Shown one piece after another: positions 53,961 to 64,000 of a stretch of 64,000 nucleotides of DNA; position 1 is the first letter of the stretch, and each line of letters opens with the position of its first letter. The position numbers were made by a program, and so were the translations under genes. The stretch is from positions 57,834 through 121,833 of the IMG/VR virus record IMGVR_UViG_3300013004_000030; one strand, written 5' to 3'. Origin of the DNA: a virus. Taxonomy: Duplodnaviria > Caudoviricetes. The notes under the pieces are model-generated. The model worked only from the letters and a program-made list of their open reading frames with translations. It ran no database searches and was not told the DNA's origin.

Positions 53961-54530
53961 TCAAGTTTCAATTTCATTGAACATATTCTCCCAGTAGCCA
54001 TCGGCCTTGAACTTCCAGATGCTATCCACCAGGATTCGGGCAACTGAGATCGGGTTGGGAGATGATCCGCACACGACCTCCTCGGCATCAGGCGGCTCCC
54101 AATAGGTGGCGGGAATGTGCTGGTAGTAGCTAACAATATAGCACGGAAGTTCCCTGAACGACGCAATCGTCTCGGTCTCCGTAACACCCGCAGCCACGCT
54201 TACTCCCGCAACCGTGATCGTCCGCTCGTTTTCGTCAACCTCCACTGACTCGCCCGGAAAGAAATGACCAACAGCATCGTTCACGACAGTCTTGAGGCGC
54301 TCCCAGTTGTTCTCGGAAAATTCCTCGAGCGTGGTGCAGAACCCGTCCTTGTACTCGGCGGGCTCCCAGAGCTTCACCTCGTTCCACGCGAGAACAAGGT
54401 TCTGCCCCGCAACCTTAACCTCGTGGTTATTGTCGCGTTGGCCAACATACTCTCCCACAATCCACCTGGGCTTTTTCATCAATCCAATCTTGACGAAAGC
54501 CTTGATCTTGACTCCGGACTTCATTCTCAT
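53961..54530 (-). CDS. Hypothetical protein
   Basis: 189 aa; PATYWEPP motif; elements on both sides. Confidence 0.7.
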   Translation of the reverse strand: MRMKSGVKIKAFVKIGLMKKPRWIVGEYVGQRDNNHEVKVAGQNLVLAWNEVKLWEPAEYKDGFCTTLEEFSENNWERLKTVVNDAVGHFFPGESVEVDENERTITVAGVSVAAGVTETETIASFRELPCYIVSYYQHIPATYWEPPDAEEVVCGSSPNPISVARILVDSIWKFKADGYWENMFNEIET

Positions 54531-54767
54531 GCTCCTTGGGGGGATAACACATCAACCATCCGGGACAAAATTTTCAACGACCCGAAAGAACAAACTTAGA
54601 GATTTCCGGACACCAATCCTTGAACTGGTGATGCTCAATAAAAAACTTCTTTCCCCGATTTTCGCCCAAGAGTTTCTCCAAATAAATCATGGCGGTTTTT
54701 TCATCTTGAAAAACCCCCTCGATCTTCTTGTGGTTACTTCCGTTCTTGGACATCACGATATAAACCA

Positions 54768-55031
54768 TCAGACCTTCTCCAGGCTTCTGGTCAAGGCTCG
54801 GCCAAGGGCGATCTTGACACCGAGACGGCGGTTGAAGTTGTCTTCTGCGGAGCAGACCGCAACACCCTCAAGTTCCTCCCCATCCGGGGTGCGAACTTGC
54901 ACAACCGTCTTCCCTCCCCGCTCCGAGACCGTCTGTACCAAGCCTCCGTTGAGGTTCTGCATGGTCTTGCCCCGGCGGGTGTGGATCACCCGAACCTTGT
55001 AGCCGCTCTTCCTGAGTTGCTCCACAGTCAT
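54768..55031 (-). CDS. Small phage protein resembling the gp49/gp66 (N4) family
   Basis: GKT...G.A.CS..DNFNRR.G..IALGRA. Confidence 0.55.
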   Translation of the reverse strand: MTVEQLRKSGYKVRVIHTRRGKTMQNLNGGLVQTVSERGGKTVVQVRTPDGEELEGVAVCSAEDNFNRRLGVKIALGRALTRSLEKV

Positions 55032-55381: not shown

Positions 55382-56656
55382 CTAGTTGCTGTCGTTGTCT
55401 ACATCTACGCGAACCACATCACCGAACGGGGGAGTGACCGATTGGTTGGTCAGCACCCAAAGAACATCAAACTTGCTGGTCGGATCGTCACCGAAGTTGC
55501 CGTACCCATCGGTGAAGAACACCGTGTAGTCGGGCTGGATTCTCTTCTCAATGAGGTGCTGGAACACCGGGGCGAAGTCGGTGCCGCCGCCGCCTTGAAG
55601 GGCGGGCAGAGGCTCATACGGGTCAATCCAGCGGCTCTCATACACACCAGCATCGCAGTCAAGGAAGTAAATCTTCGCATTGAACTTCCGGCGAATGTCC
55701 TCCAACTCCCCGATTGCTTGCTTCAAGTCGCTCTCGCTCATGCTGCCCGAAGTGTCAATCGCAAAGGCGATCTTCGGTGCGTCGGGGCCAATGTTGCTGG
55801 GGAAGATGTAGGGAGCCGAAAGGAACCGGCGGTTAGGCACAGTCCATGTAATGTCACGGGACGCCTTACGGGACGCACCGAACCGCAACCGCTGCCGAAG
55901 GGCTTGCAACCAGTTCACCTTGGGCTTGAGGTAGCCCACGATAACACGCTCCATACCGGCGGGCATGGAACCTTGGTTCTTGGCACAAGTGTAAGCCTCG
56001 CAGATGGCAGACCGAATGTAGTCCTTCATCTCTTGATCGTGCTGCTCCTTGCTCTGCCCCGGCTTCTTCTCCGGCAGAGGAACGCGACGGTCACGAATGA
56101 CAACCACATCACCATCACCGGGCATCTCGCCGGAACCCTCACCATCACCCTCGCCGGAACCGTTTAGGTCAACGACATACACCTTGCGACCACCAGTGCC
56201 GTTCTTCTCAAGTTCCTCGTAGATACGCTCCGCCGTCATGCCCTCGTACTTATCGTCAAGGAGGGTTTCCTTGATGAGAAAGTCGGGCTTCTCAAACTGG
56301 AACTTGAGCATGAGGTTGATGGCGAAGTCCGTAGCCATGTTCCACATCATCGGATCGCGGCTGCCCATGCGACCGCTATGCTCAAAGATGAAGTGACACA
56401 GTTCGTGGGCGACGAGGAAAAGAAACTGCTTGACCGTCAACTTGTCATAGAAGTCAAGGTTGAAGATCACATTGCCGTACTTGTCAATACAAGCCGTCTG
56501 GCAGAAGTGATCCTTCCCGGCCACTACGCTGAAACTGCACCGCTCGCTCATCACGCCCCAAAAGGGGAACTCGCGGGCGAAGGCCAGCATCACAATGTCA
56601 ATGTTCTTCTTGAACTGGTCGAGCCGAGACTTTTCAATGGCGGAAACTGCGGTCAT
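55382..56656 (-). CDS. Metallopeptidase-vWA protein (DUF2201-like)
   Basis: HELCH..H..R, WN.A.D..IN; MIDAS DTSGSM, GGGGTDF.PVF, FTDGYG. Confidence 0.88.
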   Translation of the reverse strand: MTAVSAIEKSRLDQFKKNIDIVMLAFAREFPFWGVMSERCSFSVVAGKDHFCQTACIDKYGNVIFNLDFYDKLTVKQFLFLVAHELCHFIFEHSGRMGSRDPMMWNMATDFAINLMLKFQFEKPDFLIKETLLDDKYEGMTAERIYEELEKNGTGGRKVYVVDLNGSGEGDGEGSGEMPGDGDVVVIRDRRVPLPEKKPGQSKEQHDQEMKDYIRSAICEAYTCAKNQGSMPAGMERVIVGYLKPKVNWLQALRQRLRFGASRKASRDITWTVPNRRFLSAPYIFPSNIGPDAPKIAFAIDTSGSMSESDLKQAIGELEDIRRKFNAKIYFLDCDAGVYESRWIDPYEPLPALQGGGGTDFAPVFQHLIEKRIQPDYTVFFTDGYGNFGDDPTSKFDVLWVLTNQSVTPPFGDVVRVDVDNDSN

Positions 56657-56769
56657 GGTTGTTCTCCTTATGCACCACTCACCGTCCAGGATTTTATTTT
56701 CAAGAAAGGGAACCCCCGTCCTCCCGAAGGTAGCGAACCCATCGGGAGGACGGTGGCCCACACGCTTTC

Positions 56770-57861
56770 TCAAGTCACGGTGATGGCACCGTGGAGGATT
56801 TCGCTGTTCGCCTTGATCCACGCGGCAACCGCCTTGGAGTGGAACAGTGCCGTCTTGATCTTCTCCGGTGCCGTCAGCATGATGCGACGGTAGAACAGAC
56901 TGGCCGGTTCCGGCGAGATACCCGAAATCACCTTCACGCAGTTCTCCAAAACCTTCTCGGGAGTCTCATGCGAAAGAAGATGCGAGGCCACCGCGTTCGC
57001 CACGGCATAGGCCACCGAAATCTCCTTCCGGTTCTCCGTAAAGGTCTCCTTGCCCTCCACCAGACGGGCGATGTTCGGGAGCGATGCACACACCTTGAGG
57101 TACGCACAGAACTCCGAACTAACAGCACCCACGCAAGCCCGAATCTGGCTCATCGCGTTCTGCCCCGCCTTGAGCCGCTTGCTCACATAACACCACGACC
57201 GGGGATTGGCCGACGCACTGTACTCGTCCTTGCGGGGCGACAACAGCGACGAAGGCGAGAACGAAATGAAACCAATCACATCGGGGTGGACATCGTTCGT
57301 CATCGCCCACTTCGTCCAGTGGTGATGGTCGGGACTGTAATCATAGATCGCAAAACGATCCAGAAGGGCAGCCGACAGCGGATAGGTGTGAGCACGATCC
57401 TCCGCACGGTTCGCAGCAGCACAGATGTACCACGACCGGGGCAACTCATGCTTGCCGATCTTGCGATCCAACACCAACTGCAAGGCCGGATTCTGCACCG
57501 AAGGCTGGGCGGTGTTCAACTCGTCCAGAAACACAATGCCCTTCGTGTAGAGGCGACCGTTCGCCACGATCCCACCCTCGCTCGGAAGGAACTCGGGACG
57601 AACCCACTCCACCGCAACCGGATTCTTGTTCTCGTCCTTCTTGATGATCGGGAGGCCACGCATGTCAATCGCCTCCAAACTGTTCAGCCGAAGGTCAATC
57701 ACCAGATCATCCTCGTCCGCAGACGCACGGATCTGATCGCTCTTGCCCACCCCCGGCGAACCAAACACCAGAAGCGGCTGATCCACCTCGCGGCAAGCAC
57801 GAACCTCCGCAGTCAGATCGCCAGAAATCGGGTTGCCCTTCTCAATAAGCGTGTCGGCCAT
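56770..57861 (-). CDS. MoxR-like AAA+ ATPase
   Basis: Walker A GSPGVGKS, Walker B FLDELN, AANR.ED, L.DRF, PRSW. Confidence 0.9.
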   Translation of the reverse strand: MADTLIEKGNPISGDLTAEVRACREVDQPLLVFGSPGVGKSDQIRASADEDDLVIDLRLNSLEAIDMRGLPIIKKDENKNPVAVEWVRPEFLPSEGGIVANGRLYTKGIVFLDELNTAQPSVQNPALQLVLDRKIGKHELPRSWYICAAANRAEDRAHTYPLSAALLDRFAIYDYSPDHHHWTKWAMTNDVHPDVIGFISFSPSSLLSPRKDEYSASANPRSWCYVSKRLKAGQNAMSQIRACVGAVSSEFCAYLKVCASLPNIARLVEGKETFTENRKEISVAYAVANAVASHLLSHETPEKVLENCVKVISGISPEPASLFYRRIMLTAPEKIKTALFHSKAVAAWIKANSEILHGAITVT

Positions 57862-58024
57862 TTTCGGATCCTCCTTATGAGTGTCAGAACCAACTTCCCA
57901 TAAACCATCTGGGAATGAGTTTTCAAAAAACCCAACCCGGTCTCAAACCACAACTCCCCAACCATCCGGGGAAAGTTTTTCAAAACCCAAGTTGACCCTC
58001 AACAAACCATCCGGGAAAAGATTT

Positions 58025-58501
58025 TCAATCGTCCTCTTCGTCATTCACATCAGAATAAAAGCCGCCCTCAACAGAAGCAGTCTCCCGCCGCACTTCCACA
58101 CCAGGATAAACCTCGGAAGACTCAACCACAGCCGAACACGAAGTCTCCTCAGGCAAACTGGAAATCTTAGAAATCCTCCCGAACTCCTCGAGAACACGAT
58201 CAAAACGATCAATTGTGCCAACCGATCGTACAAGATTCGCAAACTCCGACAGGATGCGCGTCGCCAAGTCAGGATCAAGATTGCTCTTCTCTACAAAATC
58301 ATGAACCATCTTCAACTCGGCCACCGAAACCTCCTGGGACGGCTTTGACGATGCCCGTCCCCGGACACCGAAAACCAAGGCATATGAAACATCAACACCA
58401 CCCTCACCCAACGCGGAAATACAGTCCTTCACGCTGGCCTGAGGATTGTTCTCAAAATACTTCCGAATCAATTCACTCTTGTTCACGCCACCACGAGCCA
58501 T
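58025..58501 (-). CDS. Hypothetical protein
   Basis: AAGGAG RBS; VNKSELIR.Y..NP N-terminus. Confidence 0.7.
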   Translation of the reverse strand: MARGGVNKSELIRKYFENNPQASVKDCISALGEGGVDVSYALVFGVRGRASSKPSQEVSVAELKMVHDFVEKSNLDPDLATRILSEFANLVRSVGTIDRFDRVLEEFGRISKISSLPEETSCSAVVESSEVYPGVEVRRETASVEGGFYSDVNDEEDD

Positions 58502-58542
58502 AAAAAACTCCTTGTTGAAAATCACTTGAAAAGCATTGTAGT

Positions 58543-59070
58543 CTATTTTTTCTCGTTGTAAAGAGCCTCAAAATACCGGCGAGAAGCAAAATCAACTCCC
58601 TCAAAAGAACGCAAAACCATTCTCGTGTGCATCTCTGAAGGAAGAATCCCATTTAAAACATATTTGGAATACAAATAACTCGCCAACGAATCCGAACTAA
58701 TCGCCTCCTCAGCCTCTCGCCACCTATCGCCCACAACACAAGCCGAAACCAACACACACAAACGAGGATTCCGAAGAAAACTCCGAAGATTCACACCATG
58801 ACCCAAACAACGACGAATATAATCCCCACCCAAACCAATTGGTTCAATTAAATTCAAATCAATTTTTTTAGAACTATGAAAAAACCAATCCCTAATCTGA
58901 CGAATCGAATAATTTGTGCCCTCAAATGCACGAACAACAGTGTTGAATTCCCAAGAACTACGCTCCGCCCAAAACGGAGGGTCAAAATCAAAAGAACCCA
59001 AAATACGAAGGTTACTCAAAAACTTGGAGAACTCGCTCCAAGCTTCTTCTTTTGTTTGAAATAAACTCAT
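58543..59070 (-). CDS. Paralog family B member
   Basis: RWREAEEAI; YSKYVLNGILPSEMHTRMVLRSF. Confidence 0.7.
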   Translation of the reverse strand: MSLFQTKEEAWSEFSKFLSNLRILGSFDFDPPFWAERSSWEFNTVVRAFEGTNYSIRQIRDWFFHSSKKIDLNLIEPIGLGGDYIRRCLGHGVNLRSFLRNPRLCVLVSACVVGDRWREAEEAISSDSLASYLYSKYVLNGILPSEMHTRMVLRSFEGVDFASRRYFEALYNEKK

Positions 59071-59451
59071 CGGATTTTATTACGCTGCTCGCTTCAGCCG
59101 CTCAATTTCCACAACATCCTTTTTTTGTGCGAACCTGGTCATGTGCCGATCCTGAAGATACGAATCAGCCAAACCAAACAAATAAAAACCCAGATCTCCA
59201 ACCCTGCACACAAAAGCCAAAAACAAAACCATCCCCATCATCGTTCCCAAATACATCACAACAATAAAAAGATCAGCAAACATTCTAAAACTCCAAAAAG
59301 AAAAACACCTGTCAAAACCGGCAGGTCATACCTGTCAAAACCGTCAGGTTTCTTGCGACATATTAAGTGAAATCAATGAAAATAGACCTTACGCCACAAT
59401 GATTTTCATCCTAAATAAAGAGGTCGGAATTAATCAACAACAAGGAAAAAA

Positions 59452-59679
59452 ATGAGCGAAAATGAAGGTCCCGTCTACAGCATGCTAACAGGAAAACCAT
59501 GCGGATATCTCTTGTTTACATGCGCATACAATTCAAACCTGAATGAAAATTCTTGGGGCTCACCCACATCATACATGGACGGCTGCGAATGCCCTCTAAA
59601 TTTTGACCCACCACCAGACACAGACAACCCTTGTCCAGCTGTAGGCCAACAATACTACATGAACGCCTACTGTCAGTAA
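59452..59679 (+). CDS. Small Cys-rich protein, family C (6 Cys)
   Basis: PVYSMLTGKPC; AAGGA RBS; CTAAATA upstream. Confidence 0.75.
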   Translation: MSENEGPVYSMLTGKPCGYLLFTCAYNSNLNENSWGSPTSYMDGCECPLNFDPPPDTDNPCPAVGQQYYMNAYCQ

Positions 59680-59701
59680 AACTAAGGCCTTAGGATAAAA
59701 C

Positions 59702-59917
59702 CTAAGGCCTTTTTTCTATCTCCATCGTCTCCTCCATATTATCAACCATCATGTGATCCCCCTCAATCACGCCGCACACACGAACCTTATATCCGGCCGC
59801 CACATCCTTGGAACAAAGGGAAACGGCCTCCTCCCAAGTATCCGCCTCCGCAATCGCAGCCCAAGGCTGGTCATTGTCCGGGTAGTATCCGACAACAGTG
59901 AACTTCATTTTACCCAT
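59702..59917 (-). CDS. Hypothetical protein
   Basis: 71 aa following a family B gene. Confidence 0.6.
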   Translation of the reverse strand: MGKMKFTVVGYYPDNDQPWAAIAEADTWEEAVSLCSKDVAAGYKVRVCGVIEGDHMMVDNMEETMEIEKRP

Positions 59918-59923
59918 CCAGGA

Positions 59924-61480
59924 TCAAGAAATAAGCTTGGCCCTCTCCTCAACACTCAAAGTCCCAATGTACTCCCGAGCCAACCTCTCCCTACCCTCAA
60001 TAAACTCCACATACCACCTCTCCCCAGAAAGAATCATCATGCTGTGAAGACTCTCGGGAAGACGACCACCCAAAGCATGAACATACCGATAAACCCGATT
60101 ACTCCGACTCTTAGGACACTTCCTCTTCAAAATGCCACGCTCTATCGACCTGTGCATCTCCTCAGAACCAGCCTTGAACTTCTCAAAATACAACAAACTC
60201 CCATACGAATTCTGGGCGATCACAGACTCCGCCTCAACCCACCTACCACAAATCACATGAATCGCATACTGACAAGCCAACTTGGGATCCTTCATGATCG
60301 CCGGCTCACCCAAATGAAACCGAGCCGCCGTCCTCATGGCATACGCAAAAGAAGCCATGCCACTCTTTGAGATCAATTCCAAAGTCTCTTGAGGCAGATC
60401 CTCAAACAAACAATCCAGAATCTCCTCGTTCACTACACACCCCCAATCCTTGAAACCAACTCGCGCCTTGCCTCAGGATCCAAATCCTCGAGATACCGAA
60501 CCGCACGCCTCTCACACACATCCAGAAAACGAAGATACCTCTTCGTCCAACCCCTGCGCTTGTCATCAAAACTAAACATCATCATCTTCTGGTGAAGATC
60601 AGCATTCAAACGACACCCTGTCAAAACCGCATACCTGTACATAACTTGTGCGCGATTCTTCTCCATCAAAACATCCTCGAGCTCCGGCCACCGGGGACGA
60701 CCTACAGCCTTCAGATAATTGACAACCACATCCGAAGAACTTTCCCAGCGCCACTTCTTGCCCCGACGAACAAACGACAAAACCTTCTCCTCCAACGGAG
60801 CCCACCGACCACGCACAATATTTTTAACATACTTCAAGGCCACTTCAAACTCACTAAGTATCGCCGCCTCCCCAAGCTCCCAACGACCACGAACCACCTC
60901 CGACGCATAAGCCAACGAAGAATGAGCACAGGAACTAATTACCTCCTCACCCGCCTCCCACCTGGAACCCAAAACATTACAAGCATAACTGAAGGCCGTG
61001 TTCGCACTCCTAAGTATCGCCGCCTCCCCAAGCTCCCAACGACCACGCACAACATGAAGCGCATACTCCAAGGCATACGAGGGATTGTCTGCAATACCCC
61101 CCAACTCCCAACGAGTCAACGGAATCCCATTGCGTGCCTTCTTTATGGCATACCGAGGCTGACAAACAGTAGCCGGACGAACAACCGTGTCCTTAACCGC
61201 ACGCATCTGCCGACGCATCTTTTCCCTCCAAGTACCGAATGTACATCTTCGTCCAGTTGTTGGACTCACCCAATACCATCCGGGTATGCAAATTCAAAGG
61301 AAGACCACCATCCCTATACGCCAACCACAAACACACAAAACACAACCCCTCCCAATCATAAAAATCCAGATGATCACGCAAAGGAACCCGAACCCCAGAA
61401 TTCTCAAAATCCTCCGGAGTCCAGCCCTCAAGATAAGGCTGCAAATCATCCATAAACGAAAAAATATCTTCGGAATTCAT
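59924..61480 (-). other. Three tandem family B genes (59924..60433, 60433..61218, 61193..61480)
   Basis: YA..V..GRW..GE..I repeats; C-terminal LP..LH..M. Confidence 0.75.
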
Positions 61481-61640
61481 ATTTTTTCAATAATCAAAAC
61501 CGGAATTATTACAATCCCAATCCAAAAAACAAAACATATTCCCGAGATCAAAATTTGTGCGTATTTTTTCAATAATTGAAAGCAAAATTATTAAAACTTG
61601 CACAAGAAACAAAGAATAAAAACAATAGCCAAAATTTGTG

Positions 61641-61922
61641 CTAAGGCATTATGCCCAATATGATAATCTTCTCCGCCATGTCCCGAGGTATCCCAAGATG
61701 AAACTTACTCAAAACATTCCCAGGAATACTGTTGCGCAAACTCCAAGGACACTCCAAAACAATACGCTCAATCCCATCACCACGACGAATCCAATTGCCT
61801 CGATCACGAACTATACCCAACGACTCAAGATACGAAACCCAAACCCTAAGATCGCCAAACTCCTCGTACTTACTCTCAACAATCTCCGAAAGCTCCCTGT
61901 GATGAACCGAAGACCATTCCAT
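61641..61922 (-). CDS. Paralog family A member
   Basis: MEWS..H...L..K; IPRDMAEKIIILGIMP. Confidence 0.7.
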   Translation of the reverse strand: MEWSSVHHRELSEIVESKYEEFGDLRVWVSYLESLGIVRDRGNWIRRGDGIERIVLECPWSLRNSIPGNVLSKFHLGIPRDMAEKIIILGIMP

Positions 61923-62247
61923 GGCATTGCTCCCTAGAAGAAACCATCCAGAATACCAAAATCAAACAAGAGAAACCAGCGCCATAGCCAAATCCACCCT
62001 CTACCCAATATATCCCTTAGCACCTTCCTACACCATCCTGCCTATCGAACCAAACCCGTCGTGCGAACTCAACCCATTAAAAACACACTTGTATTCTTTT
62101 GAATAATACTTGTCATTCTCCGGGGAAACAAACACAATGTTAGAAAAAATTCGTCAATTCTCGAGTGCCACCATGAGTCAAAACAACAAGACAACTACTC
62201 ATGGATGCATCTACAGGTAAATTTTAAAAATACAAACATACTAGGGT

Positions 62248-62490
62248 ATGGAAACAATATACAGTAATTTAGGCGGCAAATTCAACGCCGAATGCCCCGA
62301 AGGATACTACAGATCAAGCTTCTGCGCAGATCCCTCAGACCCATCCTTCAACGAAACACTGTTCGCCTGCGGATACCCAATCCAAATCAACTGCTACAGC
62401 ACTTTAAACGGCGACACAATACCGCCCGAAACCGTCGCCTCAACTTATGCGCCAGGATACGAATGCGTAAGCTACTGCGATAATGTCTAG
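62248..62490 (+). CDS. Small Cys-rich protein, family C (6 Cys)
   Basis: TIYSNLGGKF; ends YCDNV. Confidence 0.7.
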   Translation: METIYSNLGGKFNAECPEGYYRSSFCADPSDPSFNETLFACGYPIQINCYSTLNGDTIPPETVASTYAPGYECVSYCDNV

Positions 62491-62874
62491 GACGAATAAT
62501 ATTTCATCACCCTATACATTATGTAACAACAAAAAACCAAGGAAATAACAATAACAATAACCCTGGTCGGTTCGTCATGTATAAAAGTCGGACATATAGG
62601 ATGACGATTCATATTCATAAATGTATGTATACATATGGAACGATGAACCCAATGCTCAATTCATCGCCATCATAACCTCCGCCAGTAACAATACTATGGG
62701 GCGGTGTCATCTACACAGTCATCAAAGACTATCTCCAAGACCGATTTTAATTTAATTATTGGAAACCAATTTTCTTACACGCACAAGAAACCAATCCAAT
62801 AAAAAACAAAGGCCATAATTTGTGCAAGTGGCACTAAATCAAATATGACCGGAATATGAAAGGAGGACCCTTTC

Positions 62875-63114
62875 ATGCCAGACGAACCAATATTCAGCTC
62901 CCTCACAGGGAAATTCGACCCCAATAACCCATGCGCCAACTGCTCCGGATACTGCGATGTACCATCCGGAGCCGATACCCAGAGCAACGCCACATTCCAA
63001 TGTAACGACAACGCCGCATTCCCAGAACTCTTCGGCTACACCACAGGTTCCTGCCTAGGAGTATGGTACTCAAACGAAGAAGGATTCTGGAAATACGCCA
63101 ACTGCTTCAACTAA
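62875..63114 (+). CDS. Small Cys-rich protein, family C (6 Cys)
   Basis: PIFSSLTGKF; AGGAGG RBS. Confidence 0.75.
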   Translation: MPDEPIFSSLTGKFDPNNPCANCSGYCDVPSGADTQSNATFQCNDNAAFPELFGYTTGSCLGVWYSNEEGFWKYANCFN

Positions 63115-63204
63115 ACCTGACGGTTCCGGCAATCTTTGTTCTACCCCCACTTTTTACCTCCCTTTAGATAAAACTAAATCTAGATAAAAACAAAGGAGAA
63201 CAAC

Positions 63205-63465
63205 ATGAGCGAACCAATCTACAGCGTCCTTTCATCCAAACCAGACCCTTCAGCCTGCGGATACCAAAAGTGGGAATGCAAATCCCTCGCCGCACTAGGA
63301 TACGGAGATAGCGGATACGTAGCATTCCAAGTGGAAACAAATACAAGCGGATGCTCCTCGTGCCCCAACGGTTACTTCCTGGCAGACGAACCAGGAGTAA
63401 CATGCGACTACGAAACCGGACCAGAAGGCACAGTCAACTACGCAAATTACTATTGCAATGAATAA
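63205..63465 (+). CDS. Small Cys-rich protein, family C (6 Cys)
   Basis: PIYSVLSSKP; AAGGAG RBS; TAGATA upstream. Confidence 0.75.
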   Translation: MSEPIYSVLSSKPDPSACGYQKWECKSLAALGYGDSGYVAFQVETNTSGCSSCPNGYFLADEPGVTCDYETGPEGTVNYANYYCNE

Positions 63466-63503
63466 TCAAATACATTGATTGCAATATGCCTGCGGATCAG
63501 GCA

Positions 63504-63752
63504 TCACTCACCAGGACAATATCTCGCATCACATGTCGAAGGACCAAACACGCCCTGGCACTCCTCACTACTGGAAAATCCATAATACTGCCAGCCAAAA
63601 AGCTGAATGCATGTTCCTACTGTCCCACCAGGCGTATTGCTACAACACTTATACCCATCCGGGCACCCACACCCAGTCGGACACTCAGCAGTGTTTGTCA
63701 CACAAGGCTTGCCTGTCAAAACACTAAAAATCGGATCGTTGTTGCTAGTCAT
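63504..63752 (-). CDS. Small Cys-rich protein, family C (10 Cys)
   Basis: PIFSVLTGKPC; ends YCPGE. Confidence 0.75.
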   Translation of the reverse strand: MTSNNDPIFSVLTGKPCVTNTAECPTGCGCPDGYKCCSNTPGGTVGTCIQLFGWQYYGFSSSEECQGVFGPSTCDARYCPGE

Positions 63753-64000
63753 AAAGTTGAATCCCCTATCGATTTAAATCCTACCTATATTTCAGCCAAC
63801 TATCAAATTACTTACATCCAAAACTCAGCAGGATTTTCCAGCAGACAAATAAAAAAGGCCGGGAGATAATTAAACCCCCCAGCCAGTAAAAGTCGATTAT
63901 TCGACAAAAGCCCCATCAAGGACAAACAGCATTCATAGTGCATGTGCGATCCAAATGACTATGATTCGTACATTCACTGCAAACATTTTCGGGCTGGCCA

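Follow-up and report, generated by a model that had tools for sequence, protein, structure and literature searches.

The stretch of DNA analysed here (the window: 64,000 nucleotides, bases 57834–121833 of the 121,833-bp IMG/VR record IMGVR_UViG_3300013004_000030, referred to as G000, CheckV completeness 24%) carries five small genes, m1 to m5, whose products begin with a common nine-residue tag and continue into cysteine-rich cores of divergent sequence. We found this tag close to the N-terminus of 91 distinct proteins of 29–561 amino acids (aa) from uncultured jumbo phages, where it stands ahead of bodies of many unrelated kinds, most small members carry an even number of Cys, and the tag itself resembles one half of a tail-fibre repeat. 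In our estimate the chances are about even that it mounts interchangeable, disulfide-stabilised surface modules on the virion as a docking or assembly peptide. The five genes, a sixth tagged copy in the same record and a hairpin next to m1 are located as follows.

59452–59679, plus strand: m1, 75 aa, six Cys, net charge −7; tag PVYSMLTGK at 59470–59496; relatives P0037 and P0070.
59684–59711: bidirectional terminator-like hairpin with an 11-bp stem, between m1 and a converging 71-aa gene (59702–59917).
62248–62490, plus strand: m2, 80 aa, six Cys; tag TIYSNLGGK at 62254–62280.
62875–63114, plus strand: m3, 79 aa, six Cys; tag PIFSSLTGK at 62887–62913; core a singleton.
63205–63465, plus strand: m4, 86 aa, six Cys; tag PIYSVLSSK at 63214–63240.
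63504–63752, minus strand: m5, 82 aa, ten Cys; tag PIFSVLTGK at 63734–63708; core a singleton.
G000:C1:39604–39693, outside the window: sixth tagged copy, 29 aa, three Cys, just upstream of an ArdC-like gene.

All five open reading frames (ORFs) of 75–86 aa were present on both strands with the motif as the initial annotation had described them, and the Cys counts of 6, 6, 6, 6 and 10 and the ends in (Y/N)C plus one to three residues were likewise confirmed (AYCQ, SYCDNV, ANCFN, YYCNE and RYCPGE for m1 to m5, respectively). Cys made up 7–12% of the mini-proteins compared to 1.5% of the crude proteome, and their net charges were between −4 and −8, with abundant Gly, Pro, Asn and aromatic residues and almost no basic ones. 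The cores gave no mutual BLASTP match at E 1e-3, in agreement with the earlier description of them as largely unalignable, and the Cys spacing common to m1 (6-20-1-13-12) and m4 (6-24-2-13-16) was also found as reported. The short segments ahead of the tag (MSENEG, ME, MPDE, MSE and MTSNND) are polar and acidic, and inspection by eye, without a predictor, detected no hydrophobic core of a Sec or Tat signal behind them, which upholds the earlier statement that a Sec signal is missing.

We conclude that m1 to m5 are genuine, fast-evolving genes because they are accompanied by Shine-Dalgarno-like sites, a terminator hairpin, an m4 orthologue with all six Cys and relatives of m1 and m2. Purine-rich Shine-Dalgarno-like stretches were seen by eye 8–14 nucleotides (nt) upstream of five of the six starts. 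The m4 orthologue, P0006, is 74% identical and keeps all six Cys, and m4 also clusters with P0022, P0023 and L053:10190–10498. Over 68 aa, the m2 core shares 47% identity with the C-terminal half of a tagged 120-aa protein (L049:11842–12201) of a relative, G004, and P0064, which is related to m2, shares its C-terminus CVSYCDNV. One could suppose from the shortness of the ORFs and their lack of database names that they are chance frames or, as the initial annotation had considered, pieces of a larger gene; however, the tag occurs at ORF starts only, the Cys pattern is retained by orthologues and paralogues of other phages, whose tags show synonymous changes, and Shine-Dalgarno-like sites and a terminator are present, so that this supposition, already contradicted by conservation, deserves practically no credence. 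The TAAATA/TAGATA boxes reported upstream of some of the genes stood in part, as CTAAAT was found 31–41 nt upstream of m1, m3 and m4, at 3 of the 33 CTAAAT sites in the record; the placement is suggestive and leaves CTAAAT as a candidate promoter element of the three genes. No upstream hexamer was enriched genome-wide, and the T4-type TATAAATA occurred once.

Searches with the whole mini-proteins returned little. No family was assigned to m1–m5 in Pfam, PHROGs or NCBIfam, and weak rows for ADAM10 and BRINP fell under the cut-off and were taken as a composition effect. Among 5.8 billion proteins only the window's own five and P0006 were matched, and a HMMER search of 1.84 billion gave the five plus two long Cys-repeat proteins, which were judged compositional. 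Scans of IMG/VR and JGI metagenomes with m4 gave no match, blastn and tblastn against 50,697 phage records detected no relatives of the mini-genes, and the ESM Atlas yielded no usable match for the mini-proteins.

The tag by itself was far more productive. Across the family it reads [PT]-[IV]-[YF]-S-x-L-x-[GSA]-K, usually with Pro or Gly next, and in m1–m5 the eighth position is [GS]. A six-frame scan of the 121,833-bp record with the expression [PTAS][IVL][YFW]S.L[TSGA][GSA]K gave six matches, all six at starts of short ORFs, and a codon-agnostic scan of the complete 238-kb G004 gave exactly four tags, all at ORF starts and in one cluster. A degenerate DNA pattern, back-translated from the tag and used on IMG/VR, matched 16 loci, in 13 of which the motif lay a few residues past Met at an ORF start. 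Five related records contained 23 pattern matches, which were clustered (reversed-pattern control: 0), two additional DNA patterns brought in further records, and the number of tagged genes per relative was four to six, with six in G000. When the pattern was scanned against metagenomes, the one match was due to chance, inside a long ORF that reads as a TonB-dependent outer-membrane receptor (by eye, no search). A profile of 25 N-termini was then run against the 5.8 billion proteins for longer and for short proteins, and the tag was N-terminal in 46 of 48 longer matches and in all 24 short ones. By such searches beyond the window, for which the initial annotation had called, the family, which spans a lineage of uncultured freshwater jumbo phages, grew to the 91 proteins given above. 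No paper describing the tag was met in literature searching, which was aimed at comparators rather than at the tag and does not establish its absence from print.

Among 68 tagged proteins, Ser and Leu were invariant and Lys, Pro, Gly and Ile nearly so (S 68, L 68, K 66, P 65, G 64, I 63), position 3 was Tyr in 39 and Phe in 29, and the mean pairwise identity of the tags was 0.80. The tag begins 2–14 residues past Met, the lead-in between them being brief and either acidic or rich in Asn. Its Lys is followed by P, G, N, F, S or Y and then by variable residues; in these 68 proteins neither a conserved Glu nor a GG/GA-type cleavage site comes after the tag. Synonymous sites within the tag vary between copies and its Ser codon is AGY in all six G000 copies, compared with 35% AGY genome-wide, which together indicate long-standing selection on the peptide and not on the DNA. 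The phages that share the tag are only distantly related, 7 of 165 crude G000 ORFs, m2 included, having a match in G004 (tblastn, E 1e-5). In P0068, a protein of 60 aa on a 385,600-bp contig, two tags stand in tandem (GPVYSNEPIFSVLTGK), an arrangement that suggests duplication or recombination within the tag.

Behind the tag, the cores of the first 68 proteins fell into 31 BLAST clusters (20 singletons). A family scan of 63 tagged proteins assigned the lectin-type domain Laminin_G_3 to four and no family at all to 59, and three of the Laminin_G_3 proteins match PHROGs named baseplate wedge or virion structural protein. The other bodies comprise a Cys-free all-beta class of 277–312 aa, a class of 104–180 aa ending in LTF and many small Cys-rich cores, and a trimeric tail-spike or depolymerase (beta-helix) body was not seen in the 63 proteins scanned or in the model of m4, which is a small four-stranded sheet. 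The initial annotation had spoken of a diversified library; this description is apt insofar as many unrelated cores sit on one tag, but no dedicated diversification mechanism was seen.

Of the tagged members of up to 150 aa (n = 67), 56 had an even number of Cys, 6 an odd number and 5 none; in 48 of 62 the final Cys was at most four residues away from the C-terminus, and across the whole family 81 of 91 proteins carry a net negative charge. An even count is not universal, since the sixth copy in G000 has three Cys. Totals such as 6, 10 and 14 are more readily explained by disulfide pairing than by Cys4 zinc sites. These data bear on the idea that the proteins remain inside the cell, acting in metal binding or host takeover, with the tag as a motif for a cytoplasmic partner or a stability signal. 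It would agree with the absence of a signal peptide from the tagged mini-proteins, with CxxC-type pairs in several cores and with the position of the G000 genes among small genes of no assigned function and a MoxR/VWA pair rather than among structural genes. We nevertheless regard it as improbable, given that even counts that are not multiples of four predominate (parity 56 even to 6 odd), that the cores are strongly acidic, have hardly any basic residues and abound in Gly, Pro, Asn and Tyr, and that the same tag, which resembles a fibre repeat, also heads lectin domains.

The likeness to a fibre repeat came from one of the profile matches, P0054, which repeats the motif internally as 'aYSvLTGKPstFaPsaHxxxH' and matches tail-fibre PHROGs over its repeats. 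Homologues of P0054 are present in 430 phage records and, among the matches listed, are annotated as minor tail, tail or hypothetical proteins, mostly of Streptomyces and Microbacterium phages. Alignment of a 27-sequence tag profile with P0054 by hhalign gave a probability of 74.6% (E 2.7e-5, 14 columns), and in a single comparison the first 60 aa of the 277-aa class aligned to three successive P0054 repeats (E 5e-5, 0.001 and 0.043); for the 277–312-aa class the alignment extends through GKP-x-(L/T)-F and a later GG. In the cultured Streptomyces phage Spernnie, the annotated minor tail protein CPT_Spernnie_020, encoded within a series of minor tail protein genes and with the endolysin gene two genes downstream, contains VSWSSLTGKPSTFAPAAHSHDW followed by three further KP-xTFxPSxHxH units. 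The tag would thus correspond to the first half of a '(W/Y)S-x-LTGKP-xTFxPxxHxH' fibre-shaft repeat minus its His half.

In the T4 gp37 needle, the HxH histidines of three chains bind iron along the trimer (PMC6957217), and we infer that the actinophage repeat is the same kind of unit as these T4 His boxes. The (W/Y)-S-x-L-T-G-K-P string of the His-box shaft repeats (CPT_Spernnie_020; T4 gp37, PMC6957217) is the same as the tag; unlike them, the tag is a single N-terminal copy rather than a series of tandem internal repeats and is devoid of the HxH half. Internal tag-like repeats were not found in the long ORFs of G000 or G004. Common descent of tag and fibre repeat, as opposed to convergence, is plausible but unproven, because the likeness is short, P0054 reached no better than E 6.3 in the database-wide search and Phage_fiber_2 gave no match.

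Structure prediction of m4 alone, as had been proposed, was carried out with AlphaFold2 on a five-sequence alignment and gave an overall predicted local distance difference test score (pLDDT) of 68.6, with a four-stranded beta core at 70–81 preceded by the tag region, residues 1–10, below 50. Foldseek with this model found nothing in the PDB at E 0.001 (top rows E >2, TM ~0.2), and the best Z in a wide VIA search was 2.6. The model of the 277-aa class (pLDDT 53, residues 1–37 below 50) was too poor for a fold search. In the models the tag looks like a free, unstructured segment ahead of unrelated bodies, as a docking or co-assembly peptide would, although low pLDDT alone is no proof of this.

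We favour docking of surface modules because the tag occurs on unrelated bodies including Laminin_G_3, resembles a fibre repeat, is unstructured in the models and is linked to even Cys numbers. Tag clusters that adjoin virion genes in the relatives G001 and G004 also speak for it. According to this proposal, the first half of a fibre-shaft repeat would have given rise to the tag, which would serve for docking or co-assembly: free in the monomer, it would be inserted into a partner in the fibre or baseplate of the virion. The phages would in this way each present several different small modules for binding or decoration, perhaps in the service of adsorption, whose even-numbered Cys, the one near the C-terminus included, would close into disulfides in oxidising lake water. 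Of the two possibilities raised in the initial annotation, virion modules docked through the motif is therefore the one that we prefer, and substrates of a leader-directed modifying enzyme the one that we disfavour.

Several observations weigh against docking. A gp10-like partner was not found by a sequence-only phmmer search of the PDB with two baseplate-region proteins of this 24%-complete record. In G000, ~90 kb separate the mini-gene cluster from the baseplate/tape-measure block, and the tag cluster of G004 is ~19 kb away from a collagen-like fibre gene. Since the tagged proteins have no export signal, disulfides would need oxidation after lysis or some oxidase, of which oxidation after lysis, on the particle, would be the simplest. 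The model of m4 is moderately confident and has no fold match. The fibre likeness is short and was noticed post hoc; besides the E 6.3 of P0054, hhalign of the tag profile against the Spernnie protein gave a probability of 23.8%, Pfam Phage_fiber_2 (PF03406) matched 0 of 5 records, the HxH half of the repeat is absent from m1–m5, and the 277-aa class has only the GKPxLF part. Finally, the glycosyltransferase, GlmS-like, epimerase and S8 protease genes beside the clusters of relatives fit a modification of the tag equally well.

That modification would make the tag a recognition site at which a phage enzyme acts on the invariant Ser or Lys by glycosylation, acylation or proteolysis, with the leader of a ribosomally synthesised and post-translationally modified peptide (RiPP) as the extreme form. 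In G003, a same-strand run comprises genes for an epimerase, a GlmS-like protein, GT2 and a PaaK-like protein, a tagged gene, a 134-aa gene, another tagged gene and a 170-aa gene, with an S8 protease gene further on, 1.6 kb from the tagged genes. Two elements recur around the tags of relatives.

L051:4300–4803, L053:8315–8824 and G002:C1:267711–268220: 168–170-aa protein of no known family inside the tag clusters of G001, G002 and G003.
L105:1456–3880 (G002), L049:9548–12962 (G004) and L053:9710–11733 (G003): module of a weak PaaK/F390-synthetase-like adenylating enzyme, a 134-aa protein and a 95-aa membrane protein.

The G001 and G003 versions of the 170-aa protein are 67% identical, and more distant copies occur at other places in G002 and G004; a profile search of the PDB with it gave no match, and its 'RNPVDRFRS' stretch may be reminiscent of sulfotransferase motifs. 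Tagged genes are inserted in the PaaK-like module in G003 and G004, but in G002, where it also includes an acyl-carrier-protein (ACP)-like protein of 71 aa bearing a DSL motif, the module is separated from the tags by 145 kb, and a specific tie of the PaaK-like/134-aa module to the tags was rejected for this reason.

Modification of the tag is thus in keeping with the nearly invariant Ser, Leu and Lys, with the operon-like runs of relatives in which GT2, a GlmS-like amidotransferase, a nucleotide-sugar epimerase, the weak PaaK/F390-synthetase-like enzyme and an S8 protease occur, with the conserved 170-aa protein inside three clusters, and with the sugar-nucleotide and O-FucT-like genes of G000 (the O-FucT match being under the Pfam cut-off). 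We still hold it to be unlikely: the bodies are not short cores but folded domains that reach 561 aa, no leader-cleavage motif follows the tag, no LanM, radical SAM, YcaO or similar protein occurs among the 124 proteins of the 24%-complete G000 record, no such enzyme genes lie near the five (13 neighbours), and the G002 module with its PaaK-like, 134-aa, membrane and ACP-like proteins is remote from the tags. A modification of this kind could also go together with docking. The same evidence tells against the RiPP form in particular, and the co-occurring LanM or radical SAM gene for which the initial annotation proposed to look was not among the record's proteins. RiPP precursors such as prochlorosins resemble the present family in their constant N-terminus, variable Cys-rich remainder and several copies per genome. 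RiPP leaders are 20–80 residues long, whereas the tag has nine residues, lacks a GG/GA site and a cognate enzyme in the record, and heads folded proteins of up to 561 aa.

The surroundings of the tags also bear on capsid targeting of the T4 internal-protein type, in which small proteins are loaded into the prohead and injected with the DNA as anti-defence factors. The tag cluster of G001 lies near baseplate hub and tail sheath genes, and that of G004 near portal and terminase genes. The latter, the S8 protease gene close to the tagged genes of G003, and the small size, acidity and missing export signals of m1–m5 would all suit prohead cargo. The T4 capsid targeting signal starts at Met and is removed by the prohead protease after loading, the site rule of this enzyme being L/I-x-E. 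The tag, in contrast, starts 2–14 residues past Met behind a variable lead-in and is followed by P, G or N with no conserved Glu-type protease site, and it resembles a tail-fibre repeat; moreover, Laminin_G_3 bodies and an even-Cys signature would be odd for cargo that is packed in one reducing cell and injected into another. We accordingly judge capsid targeting to be distinctly unlikely. For the T-even proteins IPI, IPII and IPIII (PMC3012670), the likeness to the present case lies in a constant N-terminal signal of ~10 residues on fast-evolving, small and unrelated proteins with genes of similar size, and the difference in the lead-in, the lack of an evident cleavage site and bodies that look extracellular.

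Docking of the tagged proteins on the virion would have its closest counterpart in branched receptor-binding protein systems. In K1E, K1-5, SP6 and Klebsiella phages, receptor-binding proteins that are otherwise unrelated are joined to a branching domain by N-terminal peptides of 7–11 residues (PMC6872550). In these systems (K1E, K1-5 and SP6; the KP32, KP34, Menlow and PhiK64-1 groups; PMC6872550, PMC13352976) there is, as is the case here, a short N-terminal peptide as the sole common part of several proteins per phage, encoded by several, often clustered genes per genome; jumbo phages carry many, and the peptide plugs the proteins into the virion. The present bodies differ in being mostly Cys-rich mini-domains of 29–150 aa with some lectin and beta domains, docking would here be deduced from the genes, no socket was found with the two baseplate-region proteins searched, and one tag is kept across phages of such divergence that only 7 of 165 crude G000 ORFs match G004. 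Docking of mini-domains and lectins may by this analogy be a variant of the conserved N-terminal peptide logic, kept across a jumbo-phage lineage. The gp38 adhesin at the tip of the long tail fibre of T2/S16-type phages offers another comparison: it is encoded by one gene per phage, has ~260 aa and glycine-rich motifs and shows no Cys pattern. Like the modules proposed here, it is small and separate and combines a conserved N-terminus for attachment with a variable portion that binds the receptor, but it attaches by a domain and not by a nine-residue tag.

If the tag does dock, few known virion attachment signals would be as short or as widely shared: it has been kept by jumbo phages between which other proteins can no longer be aligned, and it carries dozens of unrelated small modules. 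It would then allow the surface and adsorption proteins of uncultured giant phages to be recognised from sequence alone, establish small disulfide-rich phage proteins as a new family and provide a nine-residue tag for loading foreign domains onto particles, with 'address' cleanly apart from 'cargo'. A bolder version, to which we would give a doubtful place, is that the tag is the universal plug of a freshwater jumbo-phage lineage: a display library of disulfide-knotted mini-binders, lectin and beta domains would be mounted on one conserved virion socket, with at least 31 unrelated folds swappable by gene gain and loss and with the invariant Ser or Lys perhaps glycosylated or covalently linked by neighbouring enzymes. 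It would amount to a new minimal, portable system of phage display or host range and to an undescribed class of knottin-like phage proteins. Should the tag be a packaging or modification signal instead, the system would still be an undescribed one, in a phage lineage that is large and recurs in the environment.

As for the phage itself, the record encodes gp25-, Baseplate_J- and P2 gpI-like baseplate proteins, a 2082-aa tape-measure protein, a tRNA nucleotidyltransferase and DNA methylases, with seven tRNA genes within the window, and on the basis of this gene content it is part of a large tailed phage. No DNA-level relatives of the record were found among 50,697 deposited phage genomes, in which its MoxR-type ATPase had <60% identity to anything. 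Near-identical DNA was detected in lake-water metagenome runs of 10 studies from 2018–2024 (4 of them possibly the source), and no RNA runs were listed among the runs with near-identical DNA. Across four lake metagenome runs the contigs of the locus were identical except for one T>C at 59714, and there is therefore no microdiversity from which tag and core could be compared.

The mini-gene cluster is at 117–121.6 kb of the record, near the contig end, and the baseplate/tape-measure block at 1.9–28 kb. Since the window stops 248 bp past m5 and the record is 24% complete, the cluster may continue; a protein index lists m3, m4 and m5 on a contig of 261,744 bp. Within it, the mini-genes are interleaved with four paralogous 'GRW..E' repeat proteins, for which no Pfam or PHROG family was found, and a MoxR and VWA pair adjoins. 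The neighbouring features in the window are the following.

55382–57861, minus strand: MoxR-type AAA ATPase of 363 aa (phrog_1297) and an overlapping 479-aa DUF2201_N metallopeptidase-like/VWA-like protein.
58543–61480, minus strand: four paralogous proteins of 175, 169, 278 and 95 aa with '..YA..V..GRW...E..I' units and a common C-terminal 'LP..LH..M.L' block.
59080–59283, minus strand: hydrophobic ORF of 67 aa, a possible membrane peptide, adjoining m1.
62487–62618, minus strand: hydrophobic ORF of 43 aa, a possible membrane peptide, adjoining m2.

Plus-strand ORFs of 205 and 287 aa that overlie the 'GRW..E' genes look like low-complexity shadows. Over positions 58000–64000 of the window, GC is 0.44–0.47, compared to ~0.50–0.56 upstream, and strand asymmetry is marked (GC skew −0.23 to −0.39, AT skew +0.21 to +0.26).

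Further features were recorded elsewhere in G000, among them a thioredoxin-fold CxxC protein, P0009, that has a homologue in G004.

G000:C1:33493–34710 (L008:14496–15710), minus strand: IS605 OrfB/TnpB-type protein with a Cas12f1-like TNB domain.
G000:C1 ~46250, outside the window, plus strand: metallothionein-like 31-aa ORF with the start MCKCKCVPCVRGKCEKCRCKDCKCEGCSCK, with CTAAAT and a Shine-Dalgarno-like site spaced as in m1, m3 and m4.
G000:C1:51352–53458 (L009:13352–15455): adjacent genes for P0009 (with an obvious signal peptide), the CAP-domain protein P0010 (with an N-terminal hydrophobic segment) and an M14 carboxypeptidase.
54209–55027 of G000: O-FucT-like protein, under the Pfam cut-off, near the P0009 and P0010 genes.
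L007:8207–8704 and L008:18423–18968: two SET-domain proteins.

In G004, the minus strand at 3.4–70.5 kb (L080–L083) holds a run of giant ORFs of up to ~5290 aa (54590–70465), several of which have RCC1-like or LamG-like segments and which are presumably virion proteins.

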